NCBI RefSeq assembly: GCF_056746865.1 | Contig: NZ_CM163382.1 | Reading direction: 5' to 3' (one strand) | Length of the DNA stretch: 64,000 nt | Shown: in pieces, positions 9,001 through 15,000 of the stretch | Layout of the letters: each line of letters starts with the position of its first letter | How positions within the stretch are numbered: position 1 is the stretch's first letter | Position numbers: made by a program

Positions 9001-12000
9001 CCCGCTACGCCATTGAAGCCAGCACCGCGTGGCATGCGGCAATGCGCGCCACACCAGGCGAAAAAGAGAAAATTCAGCTTTGCTTTGAAGCAACGCTAAG
9101 TGAAGACCCGGATCTCGCCTCACAAGCGGACGTTCGTTTTCATCTGGCGATTGCCGAAGCCTCACATAACATCGTGCTGCTGCAAACCATGCGCGGTTTC
9201 TTCGATGTCCTGCAATCCTCTGTGAAGCATAGCCGCCAGCGAATGTATCTGGTACCCCCGGTTTTTTCACAGCTGACCGAACAACATCAGGCAGTCATTG
9301 ACGCCATTTTTGCCGGTGATGCTGACGGGGCGCGTAAAGCAATGATGGCGCACCTTAGCTTTGTTCACACCACCATGAAACGATTCGATGAAGATCAAGC
9401 TCGCCATGCACGCATTACCCGCCTGCCTGGTGACCATAATGAGCATTCGAGGGAGAAAAACGCATGATTATTTCCGCAGCCAGCGATTATCGCGCCGCAG
9501 CACAACGCATTCTGCCGCCGTTCCTGTTCCACTATATGGATGGGGGTGCATATTCTGAATACACGCTGCGCCGCAACGTGGAAGATTTGTCAGAAGTGGC
9601 GCTGCGCCAGCGTATTCTGAAAAACATGTCTGACTTAAGCCTGGAAACGACGCTGTTTAATGAGAAATTGTCGATGCCGGTGGCGCTGGCTCCGGTGGGT
9701 TTGTGTGGCATGTATGCGCGTCGTGGCGAAGTTCAGGCTGCCAAAGCGGCGGATGCGCATGGCATTCCGTTTACTCTCTCGACGGTTTCCGTTTGCCCGA
9801 TTGAAGAAGTCGCTCCAGCCATTAAACGTCCGATGTGGTTCCAGCTTTATGTGCTGCGCGATCGCGGCTTTATGCGTAACGCACTGGAGCGAGCAAAAGC
9901 GGCAGGCTGCTCGACGCTGGTTTTCACCGTGGATATGCCGACACCGGGCGCGCGTTACCGTGATGCACACTCGGGTATGAGCGGCCCAAATGCGGCAATG
10001 CGCCGTTACTTACAGGCGGTGACGCATCCGCAATGGGCGTGGGATGTGGGCCTGAACGGTCGTCCACATGATTTAGGTAATATCTCGGCTTACCTCGGCA
10101 AACCGACCGGACTGGAAGATTACATCGGCTGGCTGGGGAATAATTTCGATCCGTCCATCTCATGGAAAGACCTTGAGTGGATCCGCGATTTCTGGGATGG
10201 CCCGATGGTGATCAAAGGGATCCTCGATCCGGAAGATGCGCGCGATGCAGTACGTTTTGGTGCTGATGGAATTGTGGTTTCTAACCACGGTGGCCGCCAG
10301 CTGGACGGTGTGCTCTCTTCTGCCCGTGCACTGCCTGCTATTGCGGATGCCGTGAAAGGTGATATCGCCATTCTGGCGGATAGCGGGATTCGTAACGGGC
10401 TTGATGTCGTGCGTATGATTGCGCTCGGTGCCGACACCGTACTGCTGGGTCGTGCTTTCCTGTATGCGCTGGCAACAGCGGGCCAGGCGGGCGTGGCAAA
10501 TCTGCTTAATCTAATCGAGAAAGAGATGAAAGTGGCAATGACGCTGACTGGCGCGAAATCGATCAGTGAAATTACGCAAGATTCGCTGGTGCAAGGGCTG
10601 GGTAAAGAGTTGCCTGCGGCACTGGCTCCGATGGCGAAAGGGAATGCGGCATAGTTGGGGGTGAGGGGAAAAGGCCGTACCAATCACCAATTTTCTGCTA
10701 TCCTGCCCCCGCACTAAGGGGGCAGTATGCTAAACATCGTACTTTACGAACCAGAAATTCCGCCAAATACTGGCAACATCATCCGTCTTTGCGCTAATAC
10801 CGGCTTTCGTCTGCATATCATCGAACCGATGGGATTTGCCTGGGACGATAAGCGCCTGCGCCGCGCGGGGCTGGACTATCACGAGTTTACCGCCGTTACG
10901 CGTCATCATGACTATCGCGCGTTCCTCGAAGCAGAAAATCCCCAGCGCCTGTTTGCCCTCACCACGAAAGGTACGCCTGCTCACAGCGCCGTAAGCTATC
11001 AGGATGGCGATTATCTGATGTTCGGCCCGGAAACGCGCGGCCTGCCAGCAAGCATTCTCGATGCCCTGCCCGCTGAACAAAAAATTCGCATTCCAATGGT
11101 GCCGGACAGCCGCAGCATGAACCTGTCCAATGCGGTGTCGGTCGTGGTGTATGAAGCCTGGCGGCAGCTGGGATATCCGGGAGCGGTGTTGAGAGATTAG
11201 TTACTGTATGCCGGATAGATGATTTGAACTGAACCCCAAAACCTGGACAGTTTCAGTTAACCGGCTTTTTGATGCTCAGTCCGGTATTCTACCGGACTGA
11301 GTCCCCCAAGACTGAGTTTTATTCTTTTTTGATTCCAGTAAGTTATGTATTCGTTAACGGCATTTTCCAGCTCTTCTACATTTCTGTAGTCCCGGCGATA
11401 GTACATTTCTTCTTTCAGGTGACCAAAGAAGTTCTCCATTACCGCATTATCAAGGCAGTTGCCCTTGCGCGACATGCTCTGCACTAACCCTCTGTCCGCC
11501 AGGGCGGACTGATAACTTTTTATCCGGTAATGCCATCCTTGATCACTGTGGAGCAGCGGTTTCTCCCCTTCAGCAAGGCTTTCCAGCCCCTTATTTAACA
11601 TCCGCTTCACCAGCTCCTCTGTAGGCCTGCAGGCCGTTTCCCACGCCACGATTTCCCCGTTAAACAAATCAAGTATCGGGGACAGGTACAGTTTTTGTCC
11701 GCCAGCCCTGAATTCGGTGATATCTGTCACCCATTTCTCACAGGGAGCTTCCGCTTTGAACTGCCGCTGAAGGATATTTTCTGCAGCGAGTCCCATATTT
11801 CCCCGGTAAGACCGGTATTTCTTCAGGCGCACAGGAGACTTCAGGCCGAGCTGTTGCATCAGTTTTCGCACCGTTTTGCCACTGAACTTAAGACCTCTTT
11901 TCTGAAGCTCACAATGGATCCGCCGGTACCCATAACATCCCCGGTGTTCATGGAAGATGGAGGCTATGAGCTGTTTCACATCAGCATACTTGTCCTTAGC

Positions 12001-15000
12001 CTTCTGCAGTGACAGCTGGTAGTACAGCGTGCTTCTGGCCAGCCCTGCAGCCTTTAACAGGTCAGACTGGCAGTGTCCGCACCTCAGGCTCCGGATGACT
12101 TTCGTTTTTTCTCCAGCTCCTGGCGCTTTTTTTCCAGGAGATGCTCCTGCATGGCTTTCAGATATGCATTTTCTGCGCGAAGATAACGCAGCTCATTCTT
12201 CATCTCTTCCGGCGTCATGTTTGCCTCGTTTTCATGGGTATCATCAGAACGGGTCATGCTTTTCTCCTTCCTGCGCCTGATAAAGGCCTCATTACCAGAT
12301 TTGCGGTAGCCTTTTATCCAGTTTTTAACCGTGTTGTGGCTGGGAATGTTAAACCGGGCAGCTACCCGGGGTAGAGACTCAGAATGCCCGAGAGCATAAA
12401 GAACCACGCAAAGTTTATCTTCAGGAGAATAGCTACGCTTGTGTCTGCAATCCAGTGCCCGAGGACCGTGAAGAAGAAAAAGATTAATCCAGTGTGAGAG
12501 GCTGGTGTGAGAAAGTTGAAAGAGTTTTGCCGTAGAAATGATGCCTGCATGACCAGCCAGGTAGTGATTTACAGCGGCAAGTTTTACTTCAAATGAATGT
12601 TTCATAAACTGCACCTTCAGATGTCAGATTATGTCCAACATTTGGGGTGCAGTTCAATTACATCGCATCCGGCACAATCACAGGACGTCAGATCCCATCC
12701 CCATATTCAAACGTATGGTTAATACCGTTGAAATGCTGATCCATATCCATTGACGGTTTATCGCTGTCTGGTTTACCGACAATGCGTGCCGGAACGCCAG
12801 CGGCGGTGGTATGCGGCGGCACCGGTTGCAGCACCACGGAACCTGCGCCAATCTTCGCGCCGCGCCCAACTTCAATATTGCCGAGAATTTTCGCGCCCGC
12901 GCCAATCATCACACCTTCACGAATTTTCGGATGACGGTCGCCACCAGATTTACCCGTACCGCCAAGCGTCACAGATTGCAGAATCGATACGTCGTTTTCA
13001 ATCACCGCCGTTTCACCCACAACGATGCCCGTGGCGTGGTCAAGCATGATACCGCGGCCAATTTTTGCTGCCGGGTGAATATCAACCTGGAACGTTACAG
13101 AAACCTGGTTTTGCAGAAATATTGCCAGTGCGCGGCGGCCCTGATTCCACAGCCAGTGACCGATACGATAGGCCTGCAAGGCATGAAAACCTTTCAGATA
13201 TAACAAGGGGGTTGAGTATTTATCCACCGCCGGGTCGCGGGTACGCACTGCCTGAATATCACAGGCCGCAGAGGCGATCATTTCCGGGTCGGCGGCGTAG
13301 GCTTCTTCCACCACTTCACGGATAGCAATAGCAGGCATAATTGGCGATGACAGCTTGTTCGCCAGCATGTAGCTCAGTGCACTGCCCAGGTTTTCGTGCT
13401 TGAGTAGCGTCGCGTGGTAAAAACTGGCCAGCATTGGCTCACAGTCCGCCAGCGTTCTGGCTTCAGCTTTAATATTGTTCCAGACAATTTCCAGTTCTTC
13501 ACACGACATTGCTTACTCCACACGATGAGATAATGACCGGCCCGTTCTGCGCGGGCCGGGTCATAGAGGTAACAAAGGTTCCCTTGGTTTAGTGGCTGCT
13601 GCGCTCGTCCTTGCGTGCACGACCTAATAACGTCAATGCTGCCTCGCGCGCGTTTTTTCCGCAATATAATACTTGATAAATTTCCTCGGTTATTGGCATT
13701 TCAACGCCGAAGCGATGCGCCAGTTCGCGGACTTCTTTCGTATTGCGGTAGCCTTCCACCACCTGACCAATCTTCTCCTGCGCGCTTTGTACATCCATGC
13801 CCTGACCGAGCATCATGCCAAAACGGCGGTTACGCGACTGGTTGTCGGTACAGGTAAGCACCAGATCGCCCAGCCCCGCCATGCCCATAAAGGTGGCAGG
13901 ATCGGCACCCAGCGCCGCGCCAAGACGCGACATCTCAGCCAGCCCACGAGTGATCAGCGCCGTACGCGCATTCGCACCAAAACCGATACCGTCGGACATT
14001 CCCGCGCCAATGGCAATGACGTTTTTCACCGCGCCGCCAAGCTGCACACCGATGAAATCCGGATTGCTGTAAACGCGGAAACTTTTGCCGCAGTGCAGCA
14101 GTTGCTGGAGATCATCAGCAAAGGTCTGGTCGGTAGAGGCCAGCGAAATAGCCGTCGGTAAACCTGCTGCCAGTTCTTTCGCAAACGTTGGGCCAGAGAT
14201 AACCGCCAGCGGAATGTGATCGCCTAACGCTTCACGCGCCACGTCCTGTAACAGACGCCCGGTTTCCGCTTCCAGACCTTTGGTCGCCCACACCAGCCGC
14301 GCATCAGGACGCATCAGCGGTTTAATCTGACGCAGCACTTCACCAAAGACATGGCTGGGTACGACGACGAGAATATTACGGCTGGCTGCCAGCGCAGTGG
14401 CGAGATCGCTTTCAAGATGGAGCGTATCGGGAAAAGGCACATCGGGGAGAAACGCGGCGTTACAGCGGTCGCGTTCAAGCGTTGCGATATGTTCAGGGTC
14501 ATGGCCCCAGAGGACAACCTCGTGGCCATTTCTTGCCAGGGTGATGGCAAGAGCGGTGCCGTACGAGCCGGCACCGATCACAGTCATTGAAGCATTACGT
14601 TGGTTCATCAGGCATCCTGATGTTCTTCAGTACCTTCGCCAGCCTGCTGCTGCAAATAGTTCATGAACAGCGCATCGAAGTTAACCGGCGCAAGGTTCAG
14701 TTGCGGGAATGTACCGCGGGATACCATGCTGGTGATGCACTCACGAGCATACGGGAACAGAATGTTCGGGCAGTATGCACCCAGGCAATGTGCCATCTGG
14801 GTGCCTTCGATACCCGCGATGGAGAAAATACCGCCCTGCTGAACTTCACACAGGAACGCGGTTTCTTCGCCCAGGGAGGCCGTTACGGTAACACGCAGTA
14901 CCACTTCGTAAACGTCATCTGCCAGTTGAGAAGATGCCGTATCCAGATCAAGTTTAACTTCTGGCTGCCAATCTTTCTGGAAAACGTGCGGCGCGTTCGG

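Follow-up and report, generated by a model that had tools for sequence, protein, structure and literature searches.

The trmL-cysE junction with and without the element

In the 64,000-nucleotide stretch of contig NZ_CM163382.1 (assembly GCF_056746865.1) analyzed here, referred to as the window, the coding sequences of trmL (10727..11200, plus strand) and cysE (12688..13509, minus strand) converge, both being intact according to the ORF list and the RefSeq annotation of identical loci, and between them lies a complete insertion sequence of 1432 bp (11225-12656) that starts with TGAAC, ends with GTTCA and has its coding capacity on the minus strand. The trmL stop codon is located 24 bp upstream of the element and the cysE stop codon 31 bp from its other end. 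Repeat search and end alignment revealed the TG...CA termini typical for the IS3 family as imperfect inverted repeats that match at 21 of 25 positions, the right repeat at the orfB end (IRR, minus strand) spanning 11225..11249 and the left repeat at the orfA end (IRL, minus strand) 12632..12656. These ends together with the ATT copies that flank them as target-site duplication (11222..11224 and 12657..12659) demonstrate that the boundaries and the duplication proposed in the initial annotation are exact. A second set of such ends was found nowhere else in the 64 kb of the window.

Excision of the element and one ATT in silico yields GCCGGATAGATGATTACATCGCATCCGGC, a palindrome of which the left half (GCCGGATAGATGATT, 11210..11224) and the right half (ACATCGCATCCGGC, 12660..12673) are now separated, the insertion point being the center of its 4-nt loop. 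Strain 7/2 has a naturally empty site that is identical to the restored junction over 75/75 bp, and the same palindrome is present in the trmL-cysE spacer of K-12, where the K-12 record lists no repeat feature. The predicted restoration of a palindrome thus holds, as does its expected presence in IS-free genomes: of 5426 complete E. coli genomes, 5284 have the junction without interruption and 134 have it occupied at exactly this position. More precisely, the restored site has the pattern GCC[GT]GAT...ATC[AC]GGC of repetitive extragenic palindromes (REPs, also called palindromic units) and is located outside of genes. A canonical REP occupies the orthologous site of CFT073 (GCCGGATAAGGCGTTCACGCCGCATCCGGC), whereas window, strain 7/2 and K-12 share the inner stem GATG/CATC, which is of neither the canonical Y- nor the Z-type. 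Because of this non-canonical inner stem the trmL-cysE palindrome is to be considered a diverged REP.

Coding content and identity of the element

The element encodes two overlapping open reading frames on the minus strand, with orfB in the -1 frame relative to orfA and a slippery heptamer A AAA AAG at the overlap (12126..12132), as is characteristic for the IS3 family. OrfA (12084..12605) is a helix-turn-helix DNA-binding protein of 173 residues (Pfam HTH_28, E = 9.6e-18), and exactly this protein was found in 13393 blocks of the public collection. The orfB frame (11257..12132) contains the DDE catalytic domain (Pfam rve, E = 1.6e-21) and HTH_21, and in the fused protein of 449 residues D295, D355 and E391 are spaced by 59 and 35 residues, resulting in the DD(35)E signature that, combined with an N-terminal helix-turn-helix, is likewise typical for IS3-family transposases. 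The heptamer was recognized by sequence and frame analysis, and RefSeq annotates a 'programmed frameshift' on an identical copy; slippage by -1 at this site would join the DNA-binding OrfA to the DDE domain, generating the OrfAB transposase. A frameshift-stimulating RNA structure was not detected 3' of the heptamer, where the fold is no better than that of shuffled sequences (z = -0.75).

Which insertion sequence is it? The fused transposase scores 387 bits against the IS3-family model NF033516 of NCBIfam (cut-off 160), and copies 100% identical over the entire 1432 bp are labeled 'IS3-like element IS1397 family transposase' in RefSeq. IS1397, which we take to be also 1432 bp long, presumably belongs to the IS150 subgroup of the IS3 family (ISfinder). 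The name IS1397 as used here is based on the RefSeq (PGAP) labels of the identical copies together with this length. The initial annotation had instead called the element IS150, and in combination with a chance landing in the palindrome this reading would have some similarities on its side: overall architecture and termini resemble each other (TGAACTGCACCCC vs TGTACTGCACCC), the sizes are close (1432 vs 1443 bp), and a 3-bp duplication and the slippery A AAA AAG are common to both elements. This reading was nevertheless rejected after the element had been compared directly with IS150 from K-12 (insJ and insK, NC_000913 3720633-3722075), as blastn found no significant alignment between the two elements, global DNA identity is 50%, and OrfA and OrfB are only 27 and 51% identical to InsJ and InsK, respectively. 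By convention copies of one IS share roughly 95% DNA or 98% protein identity (ISfinder). That an IS150 landed in the palindrome by chance has therefore practically no probability, given also the RefSeq name of the identical copies. The evidence taken together leaves very little doubt that the window contains an intact IS1397, with a transposase that targets the apex of REP hairpins, and that its target was the diverged REP between trmL and cysE.

Insertion at the apex of REP hairpins

To which extent is the position in the loop a property of the element? Ten other genomic contexts were retrieved by means of the exact OrfA sequence. In all nine contexts for which both ends of the element are available, excision restores a hairpin of the type GCC[GT]GAT...ATC[AC]GGC (-17 to -25 kcal/mol) that has the 2-4 bp duplication at its apex; in the tenth, a half-REP adjoins the one recovered end. 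Including the window, the two orientations relative to the REP are equally frequent (5 vs 5). A further insertion is found in strain KK19-02, where a variant of IS1397 interrupts the trmL-cysE REP at the same nucleotide, again with duplication of ATT but in the orientation opposite to the window copy. Thus, insertion had occurred at a REP apex at 11 of 11 complete sites (nine surveyed sites and both insertions into the trmL-cysE REP), and the hallmark of IS1397, described as insertion into a REP loop with a duplication of 3-4 bp, agrees with the window site and 10 further complete insertions, all of which have the duplication at the apex of a restored REP hairpin. One site alone would prove no preference, and for the window copy by itself coincidence in an IS devoid of target preference could be imagined. 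The survey of insertion sites rules this out, with hardly a trace of probability left, since all complete insertions are located at a REP apex and one REP was used twice at the same nucleotide. Moreover, the window contains only three other intact palindromes of the REP pattern, which covers about 0.1% of it, so that chance landing would be expected at about 1e-3 per event. The loop position is not incidental but the defining and already published target preference of IS1397: insertion specific for REPs and determined by the transposase is described in passages of PMC1525189 and PMC3184786 that cite Clement 1999, Wilde 2001 and Wilde 2003. As judged from the biology of the IS3 family, the element would move by a copy-out-paste-in mechanism via a circular intermediate, and the choice of the REP would be made by the transposase itself.

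The KK19-02 copy could alternatively have originated from the resident copy by in-place inversion or gene conversion, which would require no second insertion and would readily account for the shared nucleotide position and the shared ATT duplication. This appears improbable, since the KK19-02 copy differs from the window copy by 14 mismatches and is closer to the common 99% variant found at other loci; furthermore, inversion of an element in place across its short, imperfect terminal repeats is, to our knowledge, not a known reaction of the IS3 family. With two separate insertions, a degenerate REP with a replaced inner stem would have been hit twice at the same nucleotide. It is tempting, if rather speculative, to propose that recognition by the transposase depends on the outer GCCGGAT/ATCCGGC arms together with the geometry of the hairpin and not on the inner stem, and that the insertion might measurably alter 3'-end processing or expression of cysE or trmL in the carriers.

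Compared with IS1397 as known from the literature, the window element agrees in its length of 1432 bp, in the -1 frameshift between orfA and orfB, and in the insertion into E. coli REP loops in either orientation with duplication of 3-4 bp. It differs in nothing substantive, the inner stem of its target being GATG/CATC as compared to GGCG/CGCC or GACGC/GCGTC (Bachellier 1997; Clement 1999; Wilde 2001; Wilde 2003; as referred to in passages of PMC1525189 and PMC3184786). With IS150, no more than a distant relative, it shares IS3-family membership, termini, the A AAA AAG heptamer, the 3-bp duplication and 51% of OrfB residues, but DNA similarity is undetectable and OrfA identity is limited to the 27% given above. 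We know of no report of REP-loop specificity for IS150. Tobes and Pareja found one of two IS150 copies in CFT073 associated with a REP. ISKpn1 of Klebsiella pneumoniae, an IS3-family relative, also targets palindromic units, a specificity that is assigned to its transposase in a passage of PMC1525189 citing Wilde 2003, but the unit is of the Klebsiella type. IS621 and ISPpu9 of the IS110 family land in REPs as well (PMC3184786; PMC12288879), but they belong to the unrelated family of DEDD recombinases, and IS621 inserts beside the REP and not at the loop apex and lacks a comparable duplication.

Transcription across the junction and significance of the site

What does the insertion mean for the flanking genes? 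The initial annotation had seen in the palindrome a shared REP-like terminator that is split by the element. The splitting of a REP-like palindrome in its loop stands; its role as terminator is not supported. The restored hairpin has a stability of about -15 kcal/mol alone and about -21 kcal/mol with its flanks and is located 10 to 15 bp past each stop codon, but an intrinsic (Rho-independent) terminator consists of a G+C-rich hairpin directly followed by a T-run, and such a run is absent beside the palindrome on both strands. In addition, a terminator scan of the empty site did not call the palindrome. A search for Rfam families in 10900-12900 yielded no match, even at E up to 1. As a diverged REP without T-tract, the palindrome is not a demonstrable intrinsic terminator.

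Equally, the suggestion that the element may send transcripts into the 3' ends of trmL and cysE found no support. All statements on transcription made here are deduced from sequence. The sole promoter-like match in 10600-13600 is a candidate site for the transposase genes at IRL, the cysE-side end (TTGAAC, 18-nt spacer, CATAAT; 12628..12657, minus strand; consensus match), of which the first T is supplied by the duplicated target base. It is directed inward, reading towards trmL, and the same scan found no outward promoter at the IS ends and none facing cysE. Transcripts from this weak promoter would leave the element towards trmL as antisense RNA. Read-through transcription from cysE would run in the sense direction into the element, and only in such transcripts a hairpin would form (12605..12656, minus strand) in which nucleotides 1-11 of IRL are base-paired to the Shine-Dalgarno sequence of orfA and to the A of its ATG. 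This fold has -23.9 kcal/mol (z = -5.6), a stability reached by 0 of 200 shuffled sequences, whereas RNA that begins 3' of the -10 hexamer is unstructured (-2.4 kcal/mol). The IRL hairpin may thereby hide the ribosome-binding site of orfA from cysE read-through. RNA arriving from the trmL side would encounter a different arrangement: GCCGG of the half-REP pairs with CCGGC of the element, followed by U5 and then by a perfect 13-bp inverted repeat in the 3' end of orfB (11274..11302; repeat search and fold) that forms a strong hairpin in RNA from either strand.

REPs are known to stabilize the mRNA that precedes them, and some of them attenuate transcription. The insertion would remove the REP hairpin from the 3' ends of the trmL and cysE mRNAs, and an effect on expression could be imagined on this general ground. 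The wider proposal, that a shared bidirectional terminator is broken and that outward promoters of the element drive convergent read-through altering the expression of trmL and cysE, can in addition refer to the stable hairpin close behind both stop codons and to the promoter-like site pointing towards trmL. It seems unlikely to us, because 1) neither side has a T-tract and the terminator scan was negative for the empty site; 2) no promoter-like site faces cysE; 3) read-through from trmL would meet the new half-REP/IS hairpin with U5 and then the 13-bp hairpin; 4) RNA coming from cysE would fold into the Shine-Dalgarno-sequestering hairpin; and 5) 134 genomes retain the insertion next to intact copies of both genes, suggesting that its cost is low. 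With both flanking coding sequences intact, the site is probably a harmless landing place for IS1397.

Since IS1397 is already known for specific insertion at such palindromes, the finding is an ordinary one. Its value is mainly in the annotation, which changes from IS150 to IS1397 and turns a seemingly odd position in the loop into the signature of the element. What it adds of modest use is that one diverged REP served as target more than once, and how many junctions are occupied and empty (134 and 5284 of 5426). The locus neatly illustrates an established rule, according to which IS1397 uses REP hairpins as safe intergenic landing sites.

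Identity and anatomy of the element

The intact genes trmL (10727-11200, plus strand) and cysE (12688-13509, minus strand) converge on an insertion sequence of 1432 bp (11225-12656) that starts with TGAAC, ends with GTTCA, is coded on the minus strand and is flanked on both sides by an ATT target duplication (11222-11224 and 12657-12659). Its terminal inverted repeats are identical at 21 of 25 positions. These boundaries were correctly seen in the initial annotation; the name IS150 given there was wrong. RefSeq lists copies that are 100% identical along all 1432 bp (megablast) under the name "IS3-like element IS1397 family transposase" and notes a programmed frameshift in them. 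Against the K-12 copy of IS150 (NC_000913, 3720633-3722075) blastn gave no significant alignment, global identity was 50%, and OrfA and OrfB were 27% and 51% identical to the IS150 proteins InsJ and InsK, respectively, so that identity with IS150 was rejected. Judged by sequence, the element is IS1397, an IS3-family relative of IS150, and the earlier name probably arose because the termini of the two are alike (TGAACTGCACCCC versus TGTACTGCACCC). A near-complete copy is present in 1707 of 5426 complete E. coli genomes, nearly all copies being chromosomal.

On the minus strand, orfA (12605-12084; 173 residues, Pfam HTH_28) contains the slippery sequence A AAA AAG (12132-12126), and the orfB frame (Pfam HTH_21 and rve) ends at 11257; a search for a frameshift-stimulating structure revealed none that was convincing. 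With 387 bits (cut-off 160), the fused 449-residue protein matches the IS3 family transposase model NCBIfam NF033516; it has D295, D355 and E391 at spacings of 59 and 35. Elsewhere, one IS1397 copy is itself broken by a 1374-bp IS110-family element, ISEc21 in RefSeq (comparison locus L006 of GCA_900149875.1, 3562-4935; also locus L007, 3772-5145), at the codons of the conserved catalytic motif LLHSD/QGWHY. Since the best matches of ISEc21 to other genomes likewise lie under IS3-family transposase genes, IS911 among them, ISEc21 may target this conserved stretch of IS3-family elements.

The interrupted junction

Removal of the element and one ATT restores, as initially described, a palindrome between the convergent genes, GCCGGATAGATGATTACATCGCATCCGGC, with a hairpin fold of -15.1 kcal/mol. 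Comparison with IS-free genomes bears this out: strain 7/2, naturally without the element here, agrees with the reconstruction at 75 of 75 positions, and the K-12 junction has the same palindrome. With a 401-bp reconstructed junction as query (matches covering 80% or more of the query) the uninterrupted site was found in 5284 of the 5426 genomes, in every case under trmL and cysE, and a query of 150 bp flank plus 150 bp IS found the occupied junction in 134 genomes. CFT073 carries at this position a canonical REP, or palindromic unit (GCCGGATAAGGCGTTCACGCCGCATCCGGC); the palindrome is thus a REP, and its inner stem has diverged along the lineage of K-12 and the window.

In K-12 (locus L001, 1519-1715) about 125 bp more separate lldD from trmL than in the window (10655-10726), the K-12 spacer having additional GAGGG-rich inverted repeats that are missing from the window. 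The region 39001-64000 is covered to at most 86% by any complete genome. Rfam matches to int-alpA, isrK and C4 antisense RNA (47686-52407) adjoin integrase, primase-like and other phage-type genes in what looks like a P4-like satellite prophage, variable among strains; further Rfam matches are the Hfq-binding sRNA STnc490 (44357-44480, minus strand, 146 bits) and a JUMPstart element (36154-36192, minus strand).

Predicted consequences for trmL and cysE

The palindrome had been said to look like a shared terminator, a view left unsupported since a T-run is absent from both strands and a scan of the empty site did not call the palindrome terminator-like. Being a REP, the palindrome may stabilise 3' ends. 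It had also been suggested that the element may feed transcription into both genes at their 3' ends. The sole promoter-like match in 10600-13600, TTGAAC-18-CATAAT (12657-12628, minus strand), lies within the left inverted repeat (IRL, at the orfA end on the cysE side), its first T being supplied by the duplicated target base. This predicted promoter would serve the transposase genes, with antisense RNA leaving the element in the direction of trmL; none in this interval is directed at cysE, and the suggestion, made for both genes, is not supported. RNA entering from cysE would contain IRL nucleotides 1-11, which pair with the orfA Shine-Dalgarno sequence and start codon in RNA folding (-23.9 kcal/mol, z = -5.6), and pairing of inverted-repeat RNA with the start region is a classical insertion-sequence device against activation from outside. 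In RNA entering from trmL, folding indicates that the half-REP GCCGG can pair with CCGGC of the IS (11262-11266), followed by U5, and a perfect 13-bp hairpin (11274-11302) comes next. We infer all effects on the neighbours from sequence only.

Target choice

Ten further genomic contexts were retrieved with the exact OrfA sequence, and both ends were recovered in nine. In all nine the flanks restore a hairpin of the form GCC[GT]GAT...ATC[AC]GGC that folds at -17 to -25 kcal/mol, and the duplication, of 4 bp in six, 3 bp in two and 2 bp or an imperfect 3 bp in one, lies at its apex; the tenth (L007) shows a half-REP at its one recovered end. Orientation relative to the REP is five each way, window included. 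As the 64-kb window holds only three other intact palindromes of the REP pattern, chance cannot account for this pattern of insertion. These three (6658-6682, 38289-38310 and 43074-43095) are all unoccupied. A rearranged IS1397 of 1791 bp (locus L005, 2450-4240; segments 1-699, 1-305 and 766-1432) still lies within a REP, with the duplication TTGA.

Moreover, a chimeric query built for the inverted arrangement at trmL-cysE picked out E. coli strain KK19-02 (NZ_CM144238.1; locus L016, 2151-3582), in which IS1397 lies the other way round at the same nucleotide of the REP with ATT likewise duplicated. This variant differs from the window copy at 14 positions (99.0% identical), and its sequence and orientation point to a second, independent insertion and hence to the trmL-cysE REP as a recurrent IS1397 target. 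Two papers describe IS1397 insertion as specific to the inside of E. coli REPs and attribute this specificity to the IS1397 transposase (PMC1525189, PMC3184786, citing Clement 1999, Wilde 2001 and 2003). Insertion into the hairpin loop is the known signature of IS1397, and the trmL-cysE insertion is of low interest as an instance of this already-known behaviour.
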